Of a stretch of 64,000 nucleotides of DNA, positions 36,194 through 49,663 are shown piece after piece. The DNA comes from Escherichia coli (GTDB lineage: Bacteria; Pseudomonadota; Gammaproteobacteria; Enterobacterales; Enterobacteriaceae). The DNA lies in the NCBI RefSeq assembly GCF_050920415.1, contig NZ_CP169309.1. One strand, written 5' to 3'. Position 1 is the stretch's first letter. Every line of letters begins with the position of its first letter. The notes under the pieces were generated by a model. The model made no database searches. It had not been told where the DNA came from and saw only the letters and a list, made by a program, of their open reading frames with translations. Both the position numbers and the translations under genes were made by a program.

Positions 36194-37447
36194 ATGTTAA
36201 AGCGTGAAATGAACATTGCCGATTATGATGCCGAACTGTGGCAGGCTATGGAGCAGGAAAAAGTACGTCAGGAAGAGCACATCGAACTGATCGCCTCCGA
36301 AAACTACACCAGCCCGCGCGTAATGCAGGCGCAGGGTTCTCAGCTGACCAACAAATATGCTGAAGGTTATCCGGGCAAACGCTACTACGGCGGTTGCGAG
36401 TATGTTGATATCGTTGAACAACTGGCGATCGATCGCGCGAAAGAACTGTTCGGCGCTGACTACGCTAACGTCCAGCCGCACTCCGGCTCCCAGGCGAACT
36501 TTGCGGTCTACACCGCGCTGCTGGAACCCGGCGACACCGTTCTGGGTATGAACCTGGCGCATGGCGGTCACCTGACTCACGGTTCTCCGGTTAACTTCTC
36601 CGGTAAACTGTACAACATCGTTCCTTACGGTATCGATGCTACCGGTCATATCGACTACGCCGATCTGGAAAAACAAGCCAAAGAACACAAGCCGAAAATG
36701 ATCATCGGTGGCTTCTCTGCATATTCCGGCGTGGTTGACTGGGCGAAAATGCGTGAAATCGCTGACAGCATCGGTGCTTACCTGTTCGTTGATATGGCGC
36801 ACGTTGCGGGACTGGTCGCTGCTGGCGTCTACCCGAACCCGGTTCCTCATGCTCACGTAGTGACTACCACCACTCACAAAACCCTGGCGGGTCCGCGCGG
36901 CGGCCTGATCCTGGCGAAAGGCGGTAGCGAAGAACTGTACAAAAAACTGAACTCTGCCGTTTTCCCTGGTGGTCAGGGCGGCCCGTTGATGCACGTAATC
37001 GCTGGTAAAGCGGTTGCTCTGAAAGAAGCGATGGAACCTGAGTTCAAAACTTACCAACAGCAGGTCGCGAAAAACGCTAAAGCGATGGTAGAAGTATTCC
37101 TGGAGCGCGGTTACAAAGTGGTTTCCGGCGGTACTGATAACCACCTGTTCCTGGTTGATCTGGTTGATAAAAACCTGACCGGTAAAGAAGCTGACGCCGC
37201 TTTGGGCCGTGCTAACATCACCGTTAACAAAAACAGCGTACCGAACGATCCGAAGAGCCCGTTTGTAACCTCCGGTATTCGCGTGGGTACTCCGGCGATT
37301 ACACGTCGTGGCTTTAAAGAAGCCGAAGCGAAAGAACTGGCTGGCTGGATGTGTGACGTGCTGGACAGCATCAATGATGAAGCCGTTATCGAGAGCATCA
37401 AAGGTAAAGTTCTCGATATCTGCGCACGTTACCCGGTTTACGCATAA
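36194..37447 (+). CDS. glyA: Serine hydroxymethyltransferase
   Basis: 417 aa from ATG 36194 ([22 protein letters not shown]...), PLP-lysine motif TTTTHKTL. Confidence 0.97.
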
Positions 37448-37486
37448 GCGAAACGGTGATTTGCTGACAATGTGCTCGTTGTTCAT

Positions 37487-37584
37487 GCCGGATGCGGCGT
37501 GAACGCCTTATCCGGCCTACAAATTATTGCAAATTCAAGATATTGCAATCTCCGTGTAGGCCTGATAAGCGTAGCGCATCAGGC
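37487..37584. repeat. BIME: inverted pair of REP elements downstream of glyA, followed by bidirectional terminator hairpin (~37605-37628)
   Basis: gccggatgcggcgtgaacgccttatccggcctac ... gtaggcctgataagcgtagcgcatcaggc, nearly identical to the BIME at 7304-7401; caaggcttcc-ttag-ggaagccttg hairpin. Confidence 0.85.
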
Positions 37585-37644
37585 AATTTTTCGTTTGTGA
37601 TCATCAAGGCTTCCTTAGGGAAGCCTTGTTACGTTATCGTGCCA

Positions 37645-38838
37645 TCAAATCTGTCGTAACTGCGCCTCAACATACAAATAGCCAATCCCCAGCACCTGCT
37701 GTGCGCGGCTTAATTGCCCAAAGCCAATCTGTGTCGCTTTCACGCTCGGTCCTTCGTCACGGTCGAACGGGTTAAATCCTGTCTGGCGAATAATGGAATT
37801 AAGCCAGTTCTCACCAAAGGCGCAGCTGCGACCATACAGCCAAATCTGATTAATATTGAGGATATTGAGGAAGTTATACAGACTCAAACCAATGGCGTTG
37901 GCACTGCGGTCAACCCAGCTGGTGATCCACGGTTCTCCACTCTGCCAGGCAGCGATTAATTGTGCGGTTGTCAATTTTTCAGGATCAAGCTGAGTATTAA
38001 CCGGTTGTGATTTTAGCCATACTCGCGCCTGTTTTTTTAATGCGCTTAACGAGGCGACGGTTTCCAGGCAGCCATAACGTCCACAGTCGCAGGCGACGCC
38101 ATCCGGATTAACGATGGTGTGACCAATCTGTCCGCTACCATACAAACTGCCGCGATAAATTTGCTCGTTAATCACGAACGACGAGCCAATACCGTAATCA
38201 ACGTTGATCACGCAGAAATCCCGTCCTTGCGAATTATTTTGCCATTTCTCCGCCAGCGCCAGCATCACGCAGTCATTATCGACCATCACCCGAATGCCCA
38301 GCTTCTCTTCCAGCAGATACTTCACCTCAACCGGTGTTGTCCACGGCGCTTGCGGCATGGTTTGCGACACGCCAGTCACTGGATCAACCTGACCGTGGAT
38401 AGCCAGCGCCAGGTTGATGGTACGGTCTGGCCACAGTTTACGATGGCGATGCCAGCATTTTTCGATTTCGGACAACAGAGCCTGCGGTGTCGGTGCATCA
38501 ATCTGAAAATATTCAAATTCGCCTTTCGGACTTAAACAGGCATTAGCGACCTGACACTCAATGCTGGTGGGCGTCACGTTCAGGCACAGCGTCCAGTCAC
38601 CTTCCGGCGCGATCAGCCATGTACCGCTACTGTGCCCGCGCGTCTGGCTTTCATCGTCGATATTCACCACCCGTTTTTCGCTTTCCAGCTCCTGCAAAAT
38701 ATTACTGACCGCTGGAATTGAAATTTGCGCCAGCCGGGCCAGCGTTGATTTATTGGCGCGCTTTTGCCGGTACAGCAGTTCCAGAATCACGCATTTGTTA
38801 TGGTGGCGAATCTGTTGATTATTAATGCAGGCTCTCAT
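37645..38838 (-). CDS. yphH: ROK-family (NagC/Mlc-like) transcriptional regulator YphH
   Basis: ORF 37645..38844; N-terminal HTH, ROK sugar-kinase-like core with CxCGxxGC zinc motif (CDCGRYGCLE). Confidence 0.85.
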   Translation of the reverse strand: MRACINNQQIRHHNKCVILELLYRQKRANKSTLARLAQISIPAVSNILQELESEKRVVNIDDESQTRGHSSGTWLIAPEGDWTLCLNVTPTSIECQVANACLSPKGEFEYFQIDAPTPQALLSEIEKCWHRHRKLWPDRTINLALAIHGQVDPVTGVSQTMPQAPWTTPVEVKYLLEEKLGIRVMVDNDCVMLALAEKWQNNSQGRDFCVINVDYGIGSSFVINEQIYRGSLYGSGQIGHTIVNPDGVACDCGRYGCLETVASLSALKKQARVWLKSQPVNTQLDPEKLTTAQLIAAWQSGEPWITSWVDRSANAIGLSLYNFLNILNINQIWLYGRSCAFGENWLNSIIRQTGFNPFDRDEGPSVKATQIGFGQLSRAQQVLGIGYLYVEAQLRQI

Positions 38839-38955
38839 CTTCACTAAACCTTGTTTAGTTAATTGCGTGATTATTCCGCGAAAACATTGCCAGATTGTTC
38901 AATACACTGCCACAAATCTTTTAATTCAGTATGTCTTGTTAATATTGAGGGCACT

Positions 38956-41900
38956 ATGACTCCAGTAAAAGTGTGGCAAGAGCGCGTTGAGATCCCGACT
39001 TATGAAACCGGGCCGCAGGATATACACCCTATGTTCCTGGAAAATCGCGTTTATCAGGGATCGTCCGGCGCGGTTTATCCCTACGGCGTGACCGATACGC
39101 TGAGCGAGCAGAAAGTCCTGAAATCCTGGCAAGCGGTGTGGCTGGAAAACGACTATATCAAAGTGATGATCCTGCCGGAGTTGGGCGGTCGGGTGCATCG
39201 CGCTTGGGATAAAGTGAAACAGCGCGATTTTGTCTATCACAATGAGGTGATTAAACCGGCGCTGGTAGGGCTATTGGGGCCGTGGATTTCGGGCGGGATT
39301 GAGTTTAACTGGCCACAACACCATCGCCCGACTACCTTTATGCCCGTTGATTTCACCCTCGAAGCCCATGAAGACGGCGCACAGACGGTGTGGGTCGGCG
39401 AAACGGAGCCGATGCACGGTTTACAGGTGATGACCGGTTTCACACTACGCCCTGACCGGGCGGCGCTGGAGATTGCCAGCCGCGTCTATAACGGCAATGC
39501 CACGCCGCGTCATTTCTTGTGGTGGGCCAACCCGGCAGTGAAAGGTGGCGAAGGGCATCAGAGCGTTTTCCCGCCGGATGTAACGGCGGTGTTTGATCAC
39601 GGCAAACGGGCTGTTTCAGCTTTCCCTATCGCTACCGGCACTTACTACAAAGTGGACTACTCCGCCGGAGTGGATATTTCTCGCTATAAAAATGTGCCAG
39701 TGCCGACTTCGTATATGGCCGAAAAATCGCAGTACGATTTTGTTGGCGCATGGTGTCACGATGAAGATGGCGGTTTGCTACACGTTGCCAACCACCACAT
39801 CGCGCCAGGTAAAAAACAGTGGAGCTGGGGACACAGTGAATTCGGCCAGGCGTGGGATAAGAGCCTGACCGACAATAACGGCCCGTATATCGAACTGATG
39901 ACGGGTATTTTTGCCGATAACCAGCCCGATTTTACCTGGCTTGATGCTTACGAAGAGAAGCGTTTCGAGCAGTATTTCCTGCCTTATCATTCTCTGGGCA
40001 TGGTGCAAAACGCCTCCCGCGATGCGGTGATTAAACTCCAGCGTAGCGAGCGGGGGATTGAGTGGGGGCTGTATGCCATCTCCCCGTTGAACGGATACCG
40101 GCTGGCGATCCGCGAAATCGGCAGATGCAACGCGTTACTCGACGATGCCGTGGCTCTGACACCAGCGAACGCCATTCAGGGCGTGTTGCATGGTATCAAT
40201 CCTGACAGACTAACCATTGAACTCTCCGATGCTGACGGCAATATCGTACTGAGTTATCAGGAACATCAGCCGCAAGAGTTGCCGTTGCCGGACGTCGCCA
40301 AAGCGCCACTGGCAGCACAAGAGATTACCAGTACAGATGAAGCCTGGTTTATCGGGCAGCATCTGGAGCAATATCATCATGCCAGCCGTTCCCCCTTCGA
40401 TTACTACCTGCGCGGCGTGGCGCTGGACCCGCTGGATTATCGCTGTAACCTGGCGTTGGCGATGCTGGAATATAACCGCGCCGACTTCCCGCAAACGGTG
40501 GCGTATGCCACTCAGGCGCTGAAACGCGCACATGCGTTGAACAAAAACCCGCAGTGCGGACAGGCGAGTTTAATTCGCGCCAGTGCTTACGAACGTCAGG
40601 GGCAATATCAACAAGCCGAAGAGGATTTCTGGCGTGCGGTCTGGAGCGGCAACAGTAAAGCGGGTGGCTATTATGGTCTGGCACGGCTGGCTGCGCGTAA
40701 TGGTAACTTTGACGCTGGTCTGGATTTTTGCCAACAAAGTCTTCGCGCCTGCCCAACCAATCAGGAAGTGCTTTGCCTGCATAACCTGCTGCTGGTGTTA
40801 AGTGGTCGTCAGGACAACGCGCGTTTGCAGCGAGAGAAGTTGCTGCGTGATTATCCGCTGAACGCCACTCTGTGGTGGCTGAACTGGTTCGATGGTTGTA
40901 GCGAATCTGCCCTCGTACAGTGGCGAGGTCTGTGTCAGGGACGCGACGTTAACGCCCTGATGACCGCCGGGCAACTGATTAACTGGGGCATGCCCGCTCT
41001 GGCGGCAGAGATGCTGAACGCACTGGACTGTCAGCGCACGCTACCGCTTTACCTGCAAGCCAGCTTGCTGCCGAAAGCTGAACGCGGCGAACTGGTCGCA
41101 AAAGCCATTGATGTTTTCCCGCAGTTTGTCCGTTTCCCTAATACGCTGGAAGAGGTTGCGGCGCTGGAGAGTATTGAAGAGTGCTGGTTTGCCCGGCATT
41201 TACTGGCCTGTTTCTACTACAACAAGCGCAGCTACGGCAAAGCAATTGCCTTATGGCAACGTTGCGTTGAGATGTCGCCGGAGTTTGCCGACGGCTGGCG
41301 TGGGCTGGCAATCCATGCGTGGAATAAGCAGCATGATTATGAACTGGCCGCGCGTTATCTTGATAGTGCTTATCAGCTTGCGCCGCAGGATGCTCGTCTG
41401 CTTTTTGAACGGGATTTGCTGGATAAGCTAACCGGAGCCGCACCGGAGAAACGACTGGCTCGTCTGGAAAATAATCTGGAAATTGCTCTGAAACGCGACG
41501 ACATGACCGCAGAATTGCTCAATTTGTGGCATCTCACTGGTCAGGCGGACAAAGCGGCAGACATTCTCGCCACGCGTAAATTCCATCCGTGGGAAGGCGG
41601 AGAAGGGAAAGTCACCAGTCAGTTTATCCTCAACCAGTTGTTACGCGCCTGGCAACACCTTGATGCCAGACAACTGCAGCAGGCCAGCGAACTGCTTCAT
41701 GCCGCGCTGCACTATCCGGAGAATTTAAGCGAAGGCCGTTTACCGGGGCAAACTGACAACGACATCTGGTTCTGGCAGGCGATATGTGCCAAAGCCCAGG
41801 GCGATGAAACTGCAGCAACGCGCTGTTTACGTCTGGCGGCGACTGGCGATCGCACCATTAACATTCACAGTTATTACAACGATCAACCGGTTGATTATCT

Positions 41901-42237
41901 CTTCTGGCAAGGGATGGCGTTGCGATTACTGGGCGAACAAAAAACCGCACAGCAACTGTTTAGTGAAATGAAACAGTGGGCGCAAGAGATGGCAAAAACC
42001 AGTATCGAAGCGGATTTCTTTGCCGTCTCGCAACCTGACTTGTTATCGCTGTATGGCGATTTACAACAGCAACATAAAGAAAAATGCCTGATGGTGGCGA
42101 TGCTGGCGGCCGCGGGATTAGGCGAGATTGCGCAATACGAATCTGCTCGCGCTGAATTGACGGCGATTAATCCGGCCTGGCCGAAAGCGGCATTATTCAC
42201 CACCGTGATGCCTTTTATTTTTAACCGCGTTCACTAA
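38956..42237 (+). CDS. yphG: Large uncharacterised protein YphG (N-terminal domain of unknown function plus C-terminal TPR-like helical repeats), 1093 aa
   Basis: ORF 38863..42237; start at ATG 38956 (MTPVKVWQERVEIP) after GAGGG; no signal peptide seen. Confidence 0.8.
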   Translation: MTPVKVWQERVEIPTYETGPQDIHPMFLENRVYQGSSGAVYPYGVTDTLSEQKVLKSWQAVWLENDYIKVMILPELGGRVHRAWDKVKQRDFVYHNEVIKPALVGLLGPWISGGIEFNWPQHHRPTTFMPVDFTLEAHEDGAQTVWVGETEPMHGLQVMTGFTLRPDRAALEIASRVYNGNATPRHFLWWANPAVKGGEGHQSVFPPDVTAVFDHGKRAVSAFPIATGTYYKVDYSAGVDISRYKNVPVPTSYMAEKSQYDFVGAWCHDEDGGLLHVANHHIAPGKKQWSWGHSEFGQAWDKSLTDNNGPYIELMTGIFADNQPDFTWLDAYEEKRFEQYFLPYHSLGMVQNASRDAVIKLQRSERGIEWGLYAISPLNGYRLAIREIGRCNALLDDAVALTPANAIQGVLHGINPDRLTIELSDADGNIVLSYQEHQPQELPLPDVAKAPLAAQEITSTDEAWFIGQHLEQYHHASRSPFDYYLRGVALDPLDYRCNLALAMLEYNRADFPQTVAYATQALKRAHALNKNPQCGQASLIRASAYERQGQYQQAEEDFWRAVWSGNSKAGGYYGLARLAARNGNFDAGLDFCQQSLRACPTNQEVLCLHNLLLVLSGRQDNARLQREKLLRDYPLNATLWWLNWFDGCSESALVQWRGLCQGRDVNALMTAGQLINWGMPALAAEMLNALDCQRTLPLYLQASLLPKAERGELVAKAIDVFPQFVRFPNTLEEVAALESIEECWFARHLLACFYYNKRSYGKAIALWQRCVEMSPEFADGWRGLAIHAWNKQHDYELAARYLDSAYQLAPQDARLLFERDLLDKLTGAAPEKRLARLENNLEIALKRDDMTAELLNLWHLTGQADKAADILATRKFHPWEGGEGKVTSQFILNQLLRAWQHLDARQLQQASELLHAALHYPENLSEGRLPGQTDNDIWFWQAICAKAQGDETAATRCLRLAATGDRTINIHSYYNDQPVDYLFWQGMALRLLGEQKTAQQLFSEMKQWAQEMAKTSIEADFFAVSQPDLLSLYGDLQQQHKEKCLMVAMLAAAGLGEIAQYESARAELTAINPAWPKAALFTTVMPFIFNRVH

Positions 42238-42333
42238 ACCTTATTAACTGTAATATTTGAGCGGCACGCGCTGCCGCTCACGCTCAAATAATTAAAATAA
42301 GCCGTTGTAAATAAAAACCCTACAGGAGGCACT

Positions 42334-43317
42334 ATGCCTAAAAAAATGAGAACAACCCGTAATCTATTATTAATGGCTACGCTATTAGGTAGCACACTAT
42401 TTGCCAACGCTGCGGATAAAGAAATGACCATTGGCGCAATATACCTTGATACCCAGGGATATTACGCTGGAGTGCGCCAGGGCGTTCAGGATGCGGCAAA
42501 AGATTCTTCAGTACAGGTACAGTTAATTGAAACTAACGCCCAGGGCGATATTTCGAAAGAAAGTACCTTTGTTGATACCCTCGTGGCGCGTAATGTCGAT
42601 GCCATTATTTTGTCGGCAGTGTCCGAAAATGGCAGTAGCCGCACCGTTCGCCGCGCCAGTGAGGCGGGTATTCCGGTGATTTGCTACAACACCTGTATTA
42701 ATCAAAAGGGTGTCGATAAATATGTCTCGGCATATCTGGTTGGCGACCCGCTGGAATTTGGTAAAAAACTGGGTAACGCTGCCGCCGATTATTTTATTGC
42801 CAACAAAATTGACCAGCCGAAAATTGCCGTCATCAATTGCGAAGCCTTTGAAGTTTGTGTGCAACGACGTAAAGGGTTTGAAGAAGTATTAAAAGCCCGC
42901 GTTCCCGGCGCGAAAATTGTCGCTAATCAGGAAGGGACTGTTTTAGATAAAGCGATTTCTGTTGGTGAAAAATTGATTATCTCCACGCCAGATCTCAACG
43001 CCATTATGGGGGAATCGGGGGGAGCGACACTCGGCGCGGTAAAAGCGGTACGTAATCAAAATCAGGCTGGAAAAATTGCCGTTTTCGGTTCGGATATGAC
43101 CACTGAAATTGCACAGGAACTGGAAAATAACCAGGTGCTGAAAGCGGTAGTGGATATTTCCGGTAAGAAAATGGGCAATGCTGTTTTCGCGCAAACATTG
43201 AAGGTTATCAATAAACAAGCCGACGGTGAAAAAGTGATTCAGGTGCCAATCGATCTCTATACCAAAACGGAAGACGGTAAACAGTGGCTGGCAACGCACG
43301 TTGATGGTCTGCCCTAA
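42334..43317 (+). CDS. yphF: Periplasmic sugar-binding protein of ABC transporter (YphF)
   Basis: 327-aa ORF with signal peptide, ribose/galactose-binding-protein-like. Confidence 0.85.
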   Translation: MPKKMRTTRNLLLMATLLGSTLFANAADKEMTIGAIYLDTQGYYAGVRQGVQDAAKDSSVQVQLIETNAQGDISKESTFVDTLVARNVDAIILSAVSENGSSRTVRRASEAGIPVICYNTCINQKGVDKYVSAYLVGDPLEFGKKLGNAAADYFIANKIDQPKIAVINCEAFEVCVQRRKGFEEVLKARVPGAKIVANQEGTVLDKAISVGEKLIISTPDLNAIMGESGGATLGAVKAVRNQNQAGKIAVFGSDMTTEIAQELENNQVLKAVVDISGKKMGNAVFAQTLKVINKQADGEKVIQVPIDLYTKTEDGKQWLATHVDGLP

Positions 43318-43339
43318 TCGCTGATTCGCAGAGGTCCCT

Positions 43340-44851
43340 ATGTTCACGGCAACAGAGGCAGTTCCGGTAGCAAAAGTGGTGGCAGGAAATAAGCGTTACC
43401 CCGGCGTCGTTGCGCTGGATAACGTTAACTTTACGCTCAATAAAGGCGAAGTTCGCGCGCTGTTAGGCAAAAACGGTGCGGGAAAATCGACCCTCATTCG
43501 AATGCTTACCGGTAGCGAACGTCCGGATAGCGGTGATATCTGGATTGGCGAGACGCGACTGGAAGGCGACGAAGCTACGCTGACTCGCCGTGCCGCTGAA
43601 CTGGGGGTACGCGCGGTTTATCAGGAATTAAGTCTGGTGGAAGGGCTGACAGTGGCGGAAAACCTCTGCCTCGGTCAGTGGCCCCGCCGCAACGGCATGA
43701 TTGATTACCTGCAAATGGCGCATGACGCCCAACGTTGCTTGCAGGCGTTGGGCGTTGACGTTAGTCCTGAACAACTTGTTTCGACACTAAGCCCGGCGCA
43801 AAAGCAACTGGTGGAAATTGCGCGGGTGATGAAAGGCGAGCCGCGCGTGGTCATTCTTGATGAACCCACCAGCTCGCTTGCCAGTACGGAAGTTGAACTG
43901 GTAATCAGCGCCGTGAAAAAAATGTCAGCACTGGGCGTGGCGGTGATTTATGTCAGCCACCGGATGGAAGAAATTCGCCGCATTGCCTCCTGTGCCACCG
44001 TTATGCGCGATGGTCAGGTGGCGGGCGATGTGATGCTCGAAAACACCTCAACCCGTCATATTGTGTCGCTGATGCTCGGGCGCGATCACGTTGATCTTGC
44101 ACCGGTTGTAGCTCAGGAGATTGCGGACCAGACCGTACTGGAAGTTCGCGCGTTACGCCACAGACCAAAACTTACGGAGATCAGTTTTTCCCTGCGTCGT
44201 GGCGAAGTGCTCGGCATTGCTGGCCTGCTGGGGGCAGGGCGCAGTGAATTGCTGAAGGCGATTGTTGGGCTGGAGACGTATGAACAGGGCGAAATTGTTA
44301 TCAACGGCGAGAAAATCACGCGCCCCGATTACGGCGAGATGCTGAAACGCGGTATTGGCTATACGCCAGAAAACCGCAAAGAAGCGGGGATCATTCCCTG
44401 GCTGGGCGTTGACGAAAATACGGTACTGACCAATCGGCAAAAAATCAGCGCCAACGGTGTGCTGCAATGGTCCACCATCCGCCGCCTGACCGAAGAGGTG
44501 ATGCAGCGGATGACGGTCAAGGCAGCCAGTAGCGAAACGCCTATTGGTACGCTTTCTGGCGGCAATCAGCAAAAAGTGGTGATCGGTCGTTGGGTCTATG
44601 CCGCCAGCCAGATTTTATTGCTCGACGAGCCAACGCGCGGCGTCGATATCGAAGCCAAACAGCAGATTTACCGTATTGTCCGCGAGCTGGCTGCCGAAGG
44701 GAAAAGCGTGGTGTTTATCTCCAGTGAAGTGGAGGAGTTGCCGCTGGTGTGCGACCGCATCCTGTTATTACAGCACGGTACGTTCTCGCAGGAGTTTCAC
44801 TCGCCGGTCAATGTGGATGAGCTGATGTCCGCCATTCTGTCTGTGCACTGA
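43340..44851 (+). CDS. yphE: Sugar ABC transporter ATP-binding protein with duplicated ATPase domains (YphE)
   Basis: 503-aa ORF; Walker A GKNGAGKST, signature LSGGNQQK, second NBD. Confidence 0.9.
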   Translation: MFTATEAVPVAKVVAGNKRYPGVVALDNVNFTLNKGEVRALLGKNGAGKSTLIRMLTGSERPDSGDIWIGETRLEGDEATLTRRAAELGVRAVYQELSLVEGLTVAENLCLGQWPRRNGMIDYLQMAHDAQRCLQALGVDVSPEQLVSTLSPAQKQLVEIARVMKGEPRVVILDEPTSSLASTEVELVISAVKKMSALGVAVIYVSHRMEEIRRIASCATVMRDGQVAGDVMLENTSTRHIVSLMLGRDHVDLAPVVAQEIADQTVLEVRALRHRPKLTEISFSLRRGEVLGIAGLLGAGRSELLKAIVGLETYEQGEIVINGEKITRPDYGEMLKRGIGYTPENRKEAGIIPWLGVDENTVLTNRQKISANGVLQWSTIRRLTEEVMQRMTVKAASSETPIGTLSGGNQQKVVIGRWVYAASQILLLDEPTRGVDIEAKQQIYRIVRELAAEGKSVVFISSEVEELPLVCDRILLLQHGTFSQEFHSPVNVDELMSAILSVH

Positions 44852-44875
44852 TGAATTTTACCGAGGAACCTGAAG

Positions 44876-45874
44876 ATGTCTGCTTCGTCATTATCATTGC
44901 CGCAGGGCAAGAGCGTCTCGCTCAAACAATTTGTCAGTCGCCATATTAATGAGATTGGTTTGCTGGTGGTAATCGCCATTCTTTATCTGGTCTTCTCCCT
45001 GAACGCACCGGGCTTTATCTCATTGAATAATCAGATGAACGTGCTGCGCGATGCTGCCACCATCGGGATTGCCGCCTGGGCAATGACGCTGATTATTATC
45101 TCCGGTGAAATTGATGTCAGTGTTGGACCGATGGTGGCTTTTGTCTCGGTGTGCCTGGCATTTTTGCTGCAATTTGACGTTCCACTGGCGATTGCTTGTC
45201 TGCTGGTGTTGCTGTTAGGCGCGCTGATGGGGACGCTGGCGGGCGTGCTGCGCGGCGTGTTTAACGTGCCCAGTTTCGTTGCCACGCTGGGGCTGTGGAG
45301 CGCCCTGCGCGGAATGGGGCTGTTTATGACTAATGCCCTGCCAGTGCCGATTGACGAAAACGAGGTACTGGACTGGCTGGGGGGACAATTTCTCGGTGTG
45401 CCAGTATCCGCGCTGATCATGATGGTGTTGTTTGCGCTGTTTGTGTTCATTAGCCGCAAAACCGCCTTCGGGCGCTCGGTTTTTGCTGTTGGCGGTAATG
45501 CCACGGCGGCGCAGTTGTGCGGTATTAATGTTCGTCGGGTACGCATTCTTATTTTTACCCTTTCGGGATTATTAGCGGCGGTGACCGGCATTTTGTTGGC
45601 GGCGCGCCTCGGTTCTGGTAACGCAGGTGCCGCAAACGGTCTGGAGTTTGACGTGATCGCCGCGGTCGTGGTTGGCGGTACGGCACTTTCCGGCGGTCGC
45701 GGTTCCTTGTTCGGTACGTTGCTTGGTGTGCTGGTGATTACGCTAATCGGTAACGGTCTGGTGCTGCTCGGGATTAACTCCTTTTTCCAGCAGGTGGTGC
45801 GCGGCGTCATCATCGTGGTGGCGGTGCTGGCGAATATCTTGCTGACCCAGCGTAGCAGTAAAGCGAAACGCTAA
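44876..45874 (+). CDS. yphD: Sugar ABC transporter permease (YphD)
   Basis: 332-aa polytopic membrane ORF, RbsC/AraH-like. Confidence 0.85.
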   Translation: MSASSLSLPQGKSVSLKQFVSRHINEIGLLVVIAILYLVFSLNAPGFISLNNQMNVLRDAATIGIAAWAMTLIIISGEIDVSVGPMVAFVSVCLAFLLQFDVPLAIACLLVLLLGALMGTLAGVLRGVFNVPSFVATLGLWSALRGMGLFMTNALPVPIDENEVLDWLGGQFLGVPVSALIMMVLFALFVFISRKTAFGRSVFAVGGNATAAQLCGINVRRVRILIFTLSGLLAAVTGILLAARLGSGNAGAANGLEFDVIAAVVVGGTALSGGRGSLFGTLLGVLVITLIGNGLVLLGINSFFQQVVRGVIIVVAVLANILLTQRSSKAKR

Positions 45875-45939
45875 ACCTTAACGCCCCTGGCGCGGGTGCG
45901 GCAGGGATGAAAATTAATCGTATTGTTAATGAGGGATTT

Positions 45940-47001
45940 ATGAAAACGATGCTGGCAGCTTATTTACCAGGAAATTCGACCGTCGATCTGCGGGAAGTTG
46001 CGGTGCCGACGCCGGGGATTAACCAGGTACTGATCAAAATGAAATCCTCCGGAATTTGCGGGAGCGATGTCCACTATATCTACCACCAGCACCGCGCTAC
46101 GGCGGCGGCACCCGATAAACCGTTATACCAGGGATTTATCAACGGTCATGAACCGTGCGGGCAGATTGTGGCGATGGGGCAAGGCTGCCGCCATTTTAAA
46201 GAGGGCGACCGCGTGCTGGTGTATCACATTTCTGGCTGTGGTTTTTGCCTGAACTGCCGTCGCGGTTTTCCTATCTCTTGTACTGGCGAAGGAAAAGCCG
46301 CTTACGGCTGGCAGCGTGATGGCGGTCATGCCGAATACCTGCTGGCGGAAGAAAAAGATCTGATCCTCCTGCCGGATGCGTTGAGCTACGAAGATGGTGC
46401 GTTTATCAGTTGTGGCGTTGGCACAGCGTATGAAGGGATTTTGCGCGGCGAAGTTTCCGGCAGTGATAACGTGCTGGTGGTCGGTCTGGGGCCGGTCGGC
46501 ATGATGGCGATGATGCTGGCGAAAGGTCGCGGTGCAAAAAGGATCATCGGCGTTGATATGCTGCCGGAACGTCTGGCGATGGCGAAACAGTTAGGGGTGA
46601 TGGATCACGGCTATTTAGCAACGACCGAAGGCCTGCCGCAGATTATCGCCGAACTCACCCACGGTGGCGCGGATGTTGCGCTCGATTGTTCCGGTAATGC
46701 CGCAGGTCGCTTACTGGCGTTGCAATCCACTGCTGACTGGGGACGGGTGGTTTACATCGGGGAAACCGGAAAAGTGGAGTTCGAGGTTAGCGCTGATCTG
46801 ATGCATCATCAACGGCGGATTATTGGCTCCTGGGTGACCAGTCTGTTCCATATGGAAAAATGCGCCCACGATTTAACGGACTGGAAACTGTGGCCGCGTA
46901 ACGCCATTACCCACCGCTTCACGCTGGAACAGGCAGGTGATGCCTATGCGCTGATGGCGAGCGGCAAATGCGGGAAAGTTGTGATTAACTTCCCGGATTA
47001 A
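45940..47001 (+). CDS. yphC: Zn-dependent medium-chain alcohol/polyol dehydrogenase (YphC)
   Basis: ORF 45907..47001; start at ATG 45940 (353 aa); GHEPCG zinc ligand motif and GLGPVG Rossmann motif. Confidence 0.85.
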   Translation: MKTMLAAYLPGNSTVDLREVAVPTPGINQVLIKMKSSGICGSDVHYIYHQHRATAAAPDKPLYQGFINGHEPCGQIVAMGQGCRHFKEGDRVLVYHISGCGFCLNCRRGFPISCTGEGKAAYGWQRDGGHAEYLLAEEKDLILLPDALSYEDGAFISCGVGTAYEGILRGEVSGSDNVLVVGLGPVGMMAMMLAKGRGAKRIIGVDMLPERLAMAKQLGVMDHGYLATTEGLPQIIAELTHGGADVALDCSGNAAGRLLALQSTADWGRVVYIGETGKVEFEVSADLMHHQRRIIGSWVTSLFHMEKCAHDLTDWKLWPRNAITHRFTLEQAGDAYALMASGKCGKVVINFPD

Positions 47002-47012
47002 GGAGTCAGCGG

Positions 47013-47885
47013 ATGACCATCTATACCTTATCTCACGGGCCGCTAAAGCTGGACGTTTCTGACCGGGGCGGCGTCATCGAAGGCTTCTGGCGTGACGCGA
47101 CGCCGCTCTTACGTCCCGGTAAAAAAAGCGGTGTGGCAACCGATGCCTCTTGTTTTCCGCTGGTGCCGTTTGCAAACCGGGTGAGTGGCAACCGTTTTGT
47201 CTGGCAGGGGCGTGAGTATCAACTGCAACCGAATGTTGAGTGGGATGCGCACTATCTGCACGGCGACGGCTGGCTGGGGCAGTGGCAATGTGTCTCGCGC
47301 AGCGATGATAGCTTGTGTCTGGTGTATGAACATCGCAGCGGTGTTTATCACTATCGGGTAAGTCAGGCGTTTCATTTAACGGCAGATACGCTGACGGTGA
47401 CGCTCTCTGTCACCAATCAAGGGGCAGAGACGCTGCCATTTGGTACCGGCTGGCATCCTTATTTTCCGTTGTCACCACAAACGCGGATTCAGGCGCAGGC
47501 GAGCGGTTACTGGCTGGAACGGGAGCAGTGGCTGGCGGGGGAGTTTTGCGAGCAGCTACCGCAGGAGCTGGATTTCAACCAGCTCGCGCCGTTGCCGCAC
47601 CAGTGGGTGAACAATGGCTTTGCCGGATGGAATGGTCAGGCCCGCATTGAGCAGCCGCAGGAGGGTTATGCCATCATCATGGAAACGACGCCACCTGCAC
47701 CATGTTATTTCATCTTTGTTTCCGACCCGGCGTTTGATAAAGGATATGCGTTTGATTTCTTCTGTCTGGAACCGATGAGCCATGCGCCGGATGACCATCA
47801 TCGCCCGGAAGGAGGTGACCTCATTGCGCTTGCGCCGGGGGAATCAACAACGTCAGAGATGTCGTTGCGGGTTGCGTTACTGTAA
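47013..47885 (+). CDS. yphB: Aldose 1-epimerase family protein (YphB)
   Basis: 290-aa ORF, galactose mutarotase-like fold inferred from family assignment of YphB. Confidence 0.8.
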   Translation: MTIYTLSHGPLKLDVSDRGGVIEGFWRDATPLLRPGKKSGVATDASCFPLVPFANRVSGNRFVWQGREYQLQPNVEWDAHYLHGDGWLGQWQCVSRSDDSLCLVYEHRSGVYHYRVSQAFHLTADTLTVTLSVTNQGAETLPFGTGWHPYFPLSPQTRIQAQASGYWLEREQWLAGEFCEQLPQELDFNQLAPLPHQWVNNGFAGWNGQARIEQPQEGYAIIMETTPPAPCYFIFVSDPAFDKGYAFDFFCLEPMSHAPDDHHRPEGGDLIALAPGESTTSEMSLRVALL

Positions 47886-47895
47886 TTTATAAAAT

Positions 47896-47925
47896 GCCGG
47901 ATAAGGCGTTCACGCCGCATCCGGC
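47896..47925. repeat. REP element between yphB and yphA
   Basis: gccggataaggcgttcacgccgcatccggc. Confidence 0.75.
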
Positions 47926-47932
47926 ATCTTTC

Positions 47933-48355
47933 CTAACGCCGATCGAGAGAAATTGCCCCCGGCCCGGTAATTGCCAACAGCAGGAATGCGCCAGCGATAC
48001 TGACATTCTTCCAGAAATTAATCATATTTGGCCCAACCGCATCGCCGGTCATATCCCAGTAATGGTGACCAATCACCGCCGTACCCAGCGTGTAGAAAAT
48101 AAACAGCACCGCCAGCGGACGGGTGAAAAAGCCAAGCACGATTAAAATCGCGGCGGGCACTTCCATAACTACCGCAATAATCGCTGCCAGCATCGGCATT
48201 GGCGCGCCCAGCGAGGCCATATATTGGACCGTACCGTCAAAGCCCATCATTTTGGGAAAACCAAAAATAATGAAAATTAAGACCACGGCGATACGGGCAA
48301 TTAATAACAAAACGGGGCGGGCAGCACCAAAATCAAAATAACGTAGTGTGTTCAT
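47933..48355 (-). CDS. yphA: DoxX-family inner membrane protein YphA
   Basis: ORF 47933..48400 (GTG); start at ATG 48355 gives 140 aa; four predicted TM helices. Confidence 0.8.
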
Positions 48356-48451
48356 AACCAATCCCTTTGCAAGATAATGTGATTTAAACGTAATACACAC
48401 TCTGGTACCTCGCCACGCCCCAGGCGTTGAGATATTCGCTAATTATCCTGG

Positions 48452-49663
<1,212 letters not shown>

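Follow-up and report, generated by a model that had tools for sequence, protein, structure and literature searches.

The yph locus of Escherichia coli lies at positions 37645-48355 of the 64-kb stretch of E. coli DNA analyzed here (the window), between glyA and the hca operon, as found from the list of open reading frames (ORFs), megablast and the RefSeq annotation. The annotation was taken from the RefSeq genes of an E. coli chromosome that is 100% identical over the locus and was compared with the ORF list. The coordinates, gene content, order, orientations and family assignments that an earlier note had given for this locus, as well as its length of 1093 aa for the yphG product, agree with the ORF list, the RefSeq annotation, NCBIfam and Pfam. 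The features are collected in Table 1. Very probably, the locus is a live sugar-utilization operon that has YphG, a carbohydrate-active protein, as its conserved core.

Table 1. Genes, YphG domains and non-coding elements of the yph locus (positions in the window; TPR, tetratricopeptide repeat; ABC, ATP-binding cassette; REP, repetitive extragenic palindromic).
Feature	Position	Strand	Description	Source
yphH	37645-38838	-	397 aa ROK-family transcriptional regulator, divergent from yphG	RefSeq annotation
Quasi-palindrome, 23 bp	38840-38862	.	TTCACTAAACcttGTTTAGTTAA, adjoins the yphH start codon	inverted repeat
yphG	38956-42237	+	1093 aa, cytoplasmic, DUF5107 and TPR	RefSeq, Pfam
YphG N-domain (residues 1-445)	38956-40290	+	all-beta, aldose-1-epimerase (galactose mutarotase) fold, family-invariant polar residues	
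YphG TPR part (residues 460-1091)	40333-42228	+	about 17 TPR repeats, 34 helices in the AlphaFold2 model	
GC-rich hairpin	42254-42290	+	yphG-yphF spacer; TGAGCGGCA-cgcgc-TGCCGCTCA, nested in TATTTGAGCG/CGCTCAAATA	
yphF	42334-43317	+	327 aa periplasmic sugar-binding protein, signal peptide	
yphE	43340-44851	+	503 aa fused double ABC ATPase	
yphD	44876-45874	+	332 aa ABC permease	
yphC	45907-47001	+	364 aa zinc-dependent medium-chain dehydrogenase	
yphB	47013-47885	+	290 aa aldose 1-epimerase family protein	
REP-like palindrome	47891-47930	.	between convergent yphB and yphA; 19-nt arms, 84% complementary	
yphA	47933-48355	-	140 aa DoxX-family membrane protein, convergent	RefSeq annotation

All eight ORFs of the locus are intact. 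From yphF through yphB the intergenic gaps are only 11-32 bp, which is consistent with one operon, and yphG is separated from yphF by 96 bp that contain a hairpin. The mechanically called yphG ORF starts at a TTG upstream of the annotated ATG and would encode 1124 aa; the ATG that gives the 1093-aa protein has GAGGG as its ribosome-binding site, and the alignments with homologues begin at residue 4. Megablast against 5426 complete E. coli genomes matched the locus in all but one (5425), and in 5370 of them the coverage reached 80% or more. The ratio of nonsynonymous to synonymous substitution rates (dN/dS) was 0.009-0.066 for all eight yph genes in comparison with Escherichia albertii (0.031 for yphH, 0.047 for yphG and 0.009 for yphC) and 0.025-0.125 for the seven genes matched in an Enterobacter, where yphA had no match. 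The yph genes are real, maintained and under strong purifying selection; a cryptic or decaying locus is ruled out by the intact ORFs, the near-universal presence and the dN/dS values below 0.07. Identity over positions 37645-48400 was at least 99% in one of the 5425 matching genomes (MFDS1022581, 100%), 95-99% in 5331 and 90-95% in 93. For this locus, the source strain represents a fairly divergent E. coli lineage. Two long antisense ORFs, both on the minus strand, were also called: one of 260 aa inside yphD (45031-45813), with a low-complexity translation rich in Pro, Thr, Ser and Ala, and one of 429 aa inside glyA (36197-37486). Both look like shadow ORFs rather than genes.

YphG is built of two parts. 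Pfam DUF5107 (PF17128) was found at residues 39-324 (E 3.3e-55) and TPR_16 at E 8e-5 and 2e-4. Structure prediction, which the earlier note had proposed for this protein, gave a confident AlphaFold2 model from an 84-sequence alignment (predicted local distance difference test score, 95.5; predicted template modeling score, 0.93), in which a beta domain is followed by a TPR solenoid. The N-terminal domain has the galactose-mutarotase beta-supersandwich fold; its closest folds are true mutarotases and not glycosidase domains, and no sequence or fold match of YphG to a characterized catalytic domain of the known glycoside hydrolase (GH) or polysaccharide lyase families was found. In the 84-sequence alignment, this domain carries many invariant acidic and basic residues. 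The C-terminal part consists of tandem 34-residue repeats that match TPR profiles, and the YphG family profile matches consensus-TPR structures at E 9e-98; conserved motifs in this part are R782 and F876-x-P-W-E880-G881-G-E-G. The repeats that had been described as TPR-like are real TPRs, while the "unknown" N-terminal domain turns out to be an aldose-1-epimerase-fold domain with a solved, uncharacterized homologue that is 21% identical to YphG. This homologue, PDB 5CD6 (BDI_1685 of Parabacteroides distasonis, a structural-genomics entry named "TPR-domain containing protein"), has no function that we could find and therefore provides a fold for YphG but no activity. Counted as representative clusters at 50% identity, YphG has 5676 relatives among 1.84 billion representatives, of which 1140 reach E<1e-30. 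Full-length proteins (about 1100 aa) make up most of the top 150, showing that the whole architecture is conserved, and this full architecture recurs in Proteobacteria, Bacteroidota, Firmicutes and Bifidobacterium.

Several motifs of the N-terminal domain appear in the order in which they are found in mutarotases. By this motif order, LENxY..V.iLPELGGRI of YphG corresponds to the first strands of mutarotases, GPWISGG to P-x-A-N-R-I-x-G, and QPDF...P331-x-E333 to the final "L.PGE" strand. The invariant E313, in PYIE313LM, corresponds to FCLEPM in YphB and to PYVEIQ in 5CD6, and it parallels the catalytic-base motif of GalM (..LE-T-Q..). In a weak alignment supported by motif order, HH122/123 of YphG is placed three residues off the histidine of the mutarotase LHG motif, and for the second catalytic His of mutarotases the same kind of weak alignment offers N192 (WWAN192 versus GWHPYF) or H215 as tentative counterparts. 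Residues E116, H123, N192, H215, K287 and E313 are kept in 5CD6. These motifs suggest that YphG probably retains an anomeric-centre pocket and a general base.

To place YphG in its genomic context, 80 YphG loci from four phyla, 65 of them non-gammaproteobacterial, were scanned by calling and clustering ORFs and annotating representatives. A regulator was found adjacent to the yphG homologue in about 60 of the 80 loci (AraC-type in 44-46 and ROK in 16), and a monosaccharide-class transporter, either a sugar porter of the major facilitator superfamily (MFS) scoring above the TIGR00879 cut-off or a CUT2-type ABC importer, in about 55. A canonical mutarotase was adjacent in 20 loci (YphB-like in 13, GalM in 7). 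Among the gammaproteobacterial loci (Escherichia, Enterobacter, Budvicia, Rahnella, Citrobacter, Hafnia, Aeromonas and Photobacterium), the ROK gene and yphG remain neighbours, in divergent orientation in Enterobacterales and Aeromonas, and nearly all of these loci have a YphB-like mutarotase. The ABC importer and YphC are limited to Escherichia, Enterobacter and Budvicia diplopodorum, the other gammaproteobacterial loci having a sugar-porter MFS. A minimal module of yphH divergent from yphG, MFS gene and yphB was found in Rahnella, Budvicia aquatica, Citrobacter and Hafnia. The module ends and unrelated genes (dusA, pspG, hcaT, csiE) follow in Rahnella, Budvicia aquatica, Citrobacter werkmanii and Enterobacter sp. 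Ag1, and the Hafnia contig stops just past yphB. In Photobacterium pectinilyticum (locus L013, 15149-22329), yphG and yphH adjoin genes for a MelB-type glycoside:cation symporter, a GH2 enzyme, an L-arabinose-isomerase-like/SftI-like protein and a RhaT-type transporter, and this variant module hints at a glycoside substrate.

Within 7 kb of yphG in the 65 loci from Bacteroidota, Firmicutes and Bifidobacterium, an AraC-type regulator was found in 44 and a sugar-porter MFS in 33, some loci having a CUT2-type ABC importer with GalM in place of the MFS. Galactosidase families or GalM occurred in 39 of these loci (GH2 in 26, GH35 in 8, GH36 in 4, GH97 in 3 and GalM in 7), and the GH2 neighbours matched the BT4151 and BT4156 exo-beta-1,4-galactosidase models with scores below cut-off. 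In a sample of 20 further large neighbours, one additional GH2, two GH31 and one GH3 turned up, the rest being unrelated or of unknown type. In Bacteroidota, signal peptides are present on the glycosidases, the sulfatases and a GDSL esterase but not on YphG, so that monosaccharide release would take place outside the cytoplasm and conversion inside. In Firmicutes, all of these proteins are cytoplasmic, and the genes downstream of YphG (pheS, pheT and genes for a histidine kinase, HipA-like and GGDEF proteins and ABC exporters) are unrelated, so that YphG often forms a single-gene unit with its regulator. Six marine Flavobacteriia loci (L018, L028, L036, L041, L072 and L073) share a block of sulfatase, sugar-porter MFS, secreted GDSL esterase, secreted GH2 and cytoplasmic YphG homologue, followed by two more sulfatases and a second GH2 in L036, L041, L072 and L073 and directly by a second GH2 in L018 and L028. 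This block looks like a utilization locus for a sulfated, possibly acetylated galactan.

More distant DUF5107-TPR proteins extend this picture. Signal peptides were found in about 14 of the 84 aligned YphG homologues. One distant member is encoded in a polysaccharide utilization locus (PUL) that also has SusC/D, a beta-helix protein, GH16 and two sulfatases. Another is fused to a domain like carbohydrate-binding module family 9 (CBM9), and a third is followed by a CBM9 protein and has RhaT, a mutarotase, a dehydratase of the enolase superfamily and dehydrogenases in its vicinity. At another locus (L086, 10001-15487), the gene of a secreted DUF5107-TPR protein directly precedes genes for a xylose-isomerase-like TIM barrel (AP_endonuc_2) and a Gfo/Idh/MocA oxidoreductase. 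A GH29 fucosidase and a GH2 are encoded close by, and the gene set resembles oxidative keto-glycoside pathways. The secreted, PUL-located and CBM9-linked relatives indicate that the YphG family is carbohydrate-active and needs no cytoplasmic cofactor. In a single case (P0081, 1399 aa), the C-terminal 276 residues of a secreted DUF5107-TPR protein form an exonuclease-III/EEP-like phosphoesterase domain (NCBIfam xth, E 2.5e-12).

The remaining genes of the E. coli locus were assigned at the family level, with all scores of every yph protein against the NCBIfam equivalog models falling under the curated cut-offs. YphFED has the subunits of a CUT2-type sugar ABC importer, namely a type-I binding protein, a fused double ATPase and a single RbsC-like permease. 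YphF matched the AlsB, MglB, RbsB, LsrB and YtfQ models weakly and below cut-off (at best 65 bits against a cut-off of 335, for the AlsB model), so that NCBIfam gave no equivalog-level match to a ribose, allose, arabinose, xylose, galactose, galactofuranose or autoinducer-2 (AI-2) system, and its closest structure is an apo protein (5HSG). YphE matched AraG, XylG, AlsA, MglA and RbsA over its full length (E 2e-134 to 1e-115) below the equivalog cut-offs, and YphD matched RbsC (E 4e-67) and AraH (E 3e-65), again below cut-off. Since all YphFED equivalog scores are below cut-off, the specificity of this importer appears distinct from that of the named CUT2-type systems. From the transporter class we infer a substrate of monosaccharide size. 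YphC is a Zn-dependent medium-chain dehydrogenase with zinc and NAD(P) motifs GICGSDVH, GHEPCG, CGFCLNCRRGFPISC and GLGPVG in its translation. Its best NCBIfam matches, threonine 3-dehydrogenase and scyllo-inosose 3-dehydrogenase, scored about 170 bits against cut-offs of 380-450, every equivalog score being too low for a specific substrate assignment, and its PDB relatives are alcohol, xylitol and threonine dehydrogenases (E 1e-31 to 7e-36). Of the earlier description as a Zn-dependent polyol dehydrogenase, the zinc-dependent dehydrogenase part holds and the polyol part is a family-level guess only. YphB is identical to PDB 3NRE (E 2e-202) and has the aldose 1-epimerase family motifs YLHGDG, GWHPYF and CLEP. 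The DoxX-family gene yphA is absent from most other yphG loci and sits on the other side of yphH in Enterobacteriaceae bacterium RIT691 (L005, 8622, minus strand), Enterobacter sp. R1 (L006, 8604, minus strand) and Enterobacter sp. Ag1 (L016, 8548, minus strand), and it probably does not belong to the functional unit.

The regulator YphH has the ROK zinc motif (CxCGxxGC, here CDCGRYGC) together with an N-terminal DNA-binding domain. It matched the NCBIfam models for NagC, Mlc and ROK glucokinase at E 6e-32 to 5e-25, the Mlc alignment spanning residues 10-335, but is an equivalog of neither NagC (E 6e-32, 111 bits against a cut-off of 650) nor Mlc (E 5e-31, 108 against 530). YphH forms a small, long-branched cluster of its own and is without the conserved GR linker motif (PMC4288165). 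The 23-bp quasi-palindrome TTCACTAAACcttGTTTAGTTAA, which adjoins the yphH start codon, has a single match in the window against 0.01 expected by chance, and lies inside a block of about 35 nt (ACTAAAC...ATTGCGTGA) that is conserved, between diverging flanks, across 12 gammaproteobacterial yphH-yphG spacers. It has the 23-bp geometry of NagC and Mlc operators (PMC4288165), from which it differs by TA/TA instead of TT/AA at positions +/-5 and 6. We propose this palindrome as a candidate YphH operator.

In the same spacer, the sigma-70 promoter scan gave no hit above threshold, the scan as a whole being uninformative (6 hits against 10.2 expected). A weak candidate yphG promoter at 38907-38935 (-35 CTGCCA, 17-nt spacer, -10 TATGTC) matches at 7 of 12 positions, below the scan threshold, and would, being so weak, need an activator; its ACTGCCA block is conserved across Enterobacterales in the intergenic alignment. 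A possible CRP site in the spacer was rejected by eye, GTGA-N6-CGCGA being a poor match to TGTGA-N6-TCACA. The hairpin between yphG and yphF folds as RNA with -22.5 kcal/mol (z = -2.2) and is not followed by a T-run; it may set unequal expression of yphG and the transporter genes or stabilize the mRNA. The palindrome between yphB and yphA, presumably a REP element from its agreement with the GCCGGATAAGGCGT...ACGCCGCATCCGGCA pattern, probably acts as a bidirectional terminator or stabilizer. The terminator scan returned 20 terminator-like hits, mostly inside genes, and no clear terminator after yphB, and no Rfam family was found in 37000-49000.

The yph locus is a known unknown and not a discovery, as the locus and the DUF are already catalogued and the operon type is ordinary. 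The view of the earlier note that no substrate and no role of YphG has been established is supported, the open full-text literature, NCBIfam, Pfam and AFDB giving only family-level names; the AFDB50 fold search with YphG returned only unnamed "DUF5107 domain-containing protein" entries and generic TPR proteins. A search of about 8 million open full-text papers and preprints, subscription journals being outside its coverage, found no functional study of yphG, DUF5107, yphF, yphC, yphB or yphH; the name yphC there mostly denotes the B. subtilis GTPase or an H. pylori locus for multilocus sequence typing, and YPHF mostly denotes peptides. DUF5107 appeared there in one paper, as an unnamed orthogroup (PMC8163842). 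YphH was listed as an uncharacterized ROK regulator in 2014, 2016 and 2022 (PMC4288165, PMC4797297, PMC9308461), and yphFED was tabulated in 2023 as a "putative sugar ABC transporter" (PMC10305011). In a study of uropathogenic E. coli, yphF was among the ABC-importer mutants chosen for single-gene follow-up on account of in vivo or in vitro defects in the transposon screen (PMC11032443). YphF has also been detected by proteomics, at higher levels on levoglucosan, a non-repressing carbon source, than on fructose; levoglucosan as a specific cue was rejected since MalE, XylF, MglA, UgpB and YtfQ rise alongside, and the increase is read as general catabolite derepression, not specificity (PMC8753852). 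Both observations speak for a live locus. What is new here for YphG is the fold, the Glu motif, the approximately 17 TPRs, the cross-phylum architecture and neighbourhood, the galactosidase association and the secreted, PUL-located and CBM9-linked relatives.

For the chemistry of YphG, we tentatively favour a mutarotase-type reaction on a free sugar at its anomeric centre, at somewhat less than an even chance. Two independent monosaccharide-class transporter families, exo-glycosidases outside the cytoplasm, the mutarotase fold and the Glu motif that YphG retains together point this way. That the substrate is galacto-configured has about an even chance. In such a pathway, YphH would act as a ROK repressor controlling the divergent promoters, probably through the 23-bp palindrome at the 5' end of its own gene and probably in response to a sugar, and YphFED would import a monosaccharide-sized carbohydrate. 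YphG would be the core enzyme, with its epimerase-fold domain binding the sugar at the free anomeric centre and catalyzing ring-opening by proton transfer, as a specialized mutarotase or ring-form isomerase, and its 17-repeat solenoid could serve as a scaffold or lid. YphB would supply or remove the other anomer and YphC would add an oxidoreduction step in the Escherichia/Enterobacter lineage only. The sugar would most likely be D-galactose, L-arabinose, D-fucose, a derivative of these or a very small galactoside.

A number of observations weigh against this reading. Aldose_epim (PF01263) was absent from the Pfam hits of YphG up to an independent E of 10, and hhalign matched the N-terminal domain weakly to YphB and GalM (E 0.024, probability 2%); the profile-profile alignment of YphG, YphB and GalM is too weak to fix residue equivalences and motif order alone is usable. 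If YphG were no more than a mutarotase, the canonical one next to it in 20 loci would be superfluous, and about 1100 residues with a 630-residue solenoid are far beyond known mutarotase needs. The relatives that are secreted, lie in a PUL with GH16 and sulfatases or are linked to CBM9 suit a glycan-active enzyme better than a monosaccharide anomerase. Moreover, the link to galactose is by association only, from counts taken without a genome-wide background and with GH31 and GH3 also nearby, the yph locus of E. coli contains no glycosidase gene, and E. coli already possesses GalM, MglBAC and GalP.

Several of these points would be accounted for if YphG were a new glycoside-cleaving enzyme (hydrolase, lyase or phosphorylase) that uses the mutarotase fold as its catalytic domain, which we consider less likely but still a live alternative. 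A small glycoside, such as a galactosyl-polyol or galactobiose, would be imported and split by YphG, after which YphB would equilibrate the anomers, as GalM does after LacZ, and YphC would oxidize the polyol aglycone. Such a pathway would explain the canonical mutarotases nearby as well as a Zn-dependent dehydrogenase in 10-12 loci of distant lineages, and a module of regulator, transporter and YphG with no other catabolic enzyme would follow a logic like that of lacY-lacZ. It would also suit the size of YphG, the invariant acidic and basic residues of its N-terminal domain, the other galactosidases that recur as neighbours and the secreted relatives in PULs with GH16, sulfatases and SusC/D, in addition to the CBM9-like fusion and the member followed by a stand-alone CBM9 protein. 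However, the sugar-porter MFS and the CUT2-type ABC importer are unrelated to each other and both classically transport monosaccharides, the signal-peptide exo-glycosidases of Bacteroidota should already free the monosaccharide outside the cytoplasm, and the nearest folds are true mutarotases, with no glycosidase domains among them. To our knowledge, no glycoside hydrolase family has the mutarotase fold as its catalytic domain, which also counts against cleavage by YphG.

Improbable, in our view, is another cofactor-independent conversion, by which YphG would make a common sugar from a rare one through aldose-ketose isomerization, epimerization, or the hydration or dehydration of an atypical sugar intermediate. 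A single conserved enzyme next to a monosaccharide transporter would fit this, as would adjacent mutarotases that deliver one specific anomer, and the secreted homologue at L086 precedes a TIM barrel and an oxidoreductase in a pairing typical of keto-sugar pathways. Residues E116, H122, H123, H215, E313 and D325 could form a metal or acid-base cluster, but D325 and H122 are not kept in 5CD6; in addition, such chemistry is without precedent in the mutarotase fold, and the recurrent neighbours would yield ordinary galactose, for which no conversion of this kind is needed. A role of YphG as a non-enzymatic, sugar-binding scaffold or signalling protein, in which the mutarotase-like domain senses and the solenoid docks on the regulator, transporter or other proteins, is the least probable. 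In its favour, TPR solenoids normally mediate protein-protein contacts, that of YphG matches the genuine TPR consensus, about 60 of the 80 loci have a regulator next to YphG that is transcribed divergently, and the second catalytic His is possibly, if tentatively, replaced (WWAN192). However, the regulator switches between unrelated families (ROK, AraC and LacI) while YphG stays constant, and a regulator next door is nothing unusual for a catabolic gene. Members that are secreted or fused to CBM9 cannot act as signalling partners in the cytoplasm, and the dense invariant polar residues of the N-terminal domain, including the catalytic-Glu motif, look like an active site.

With mutarotase-type chemistry as the favoured reading and glycoside cleavage as its strongest rival, a broader and speculative proposal is that DUF5107-TPR proteins are a new class of carbohydrate-active enzymes, with a mutarotase fold closed by a TPR solenoid, that would cleave a glycosidic bond or convert the ring form or the reducing end of galacto-type sugars by an undescribed reaction. 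If this unlikely proposal were true, the E. coli core genome would share an unrecognized step of galactoside catabolism with many gut Bacteroidota and Lachnospiraceae and with marine Flavobacteriia. A new catalytic type would supply a step that is missing from models of how galactans and galactosides are used in the gut and the sea, and it would close a gap in the metabolic reconstruction of E. coli, while for an oversized mutarotase the question would become the purpose of the TPR solenoid. YphG is among the largest E. coli K-12 core proteins still without a function, and the reach of its family includes gut Bacteroidota, Lachnospiraceae, Bifidobacterium and marine Flavobacteriia. Its role is now testable through a confident model with a mutarotase-type pocket and the residues E313, H122/H123, H215, N192, K287 and E116, as well as through a likely substrate class (galacto-configured sugars or small galactosides) and a candidate YphH operator.

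By comparison with known systems, YphH has the ROK fold, zinc motif and N-terminal DNA-binding region in common with NagC and Mlc. The importer YphFED has the same subunit plan (an ATPase of about 500 aa and a permease of about 330 aa) as MglBAC, RbsACB, AlsBAC, AraFGH, XylFGH and YtfQRT-YjfF and, like the CUT2-type systems of E. coli, is encoded in an operon with catabolic enzymes and a dedicated repressor; however, the named CUT2-type systems use LacI/GalR- or AraC-type regulators while that of yph is ROK-type, and YphG, YphC and YphB fit no known pathway. The solved homologue 5CD6, with 580 aa and about 5 TPR pairs, is half the length of YphG. In comparison with the aldose 1-epimerases (GalM and the E. 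coli proteins YphB, YeaD and YihR; PF01263), to which YphG does not belong at the sequence level, YphG has Trp in place of the Arg of the NRI motif and possibly Asn in place of the second catalytic His, and the YphG domain has an extra conserved N-terminal arm of 40 residues and 630 residues of TPR fused to it. Unlike plain aldose 1-epimerases, YphG co-occurs with canonical mutarotases.

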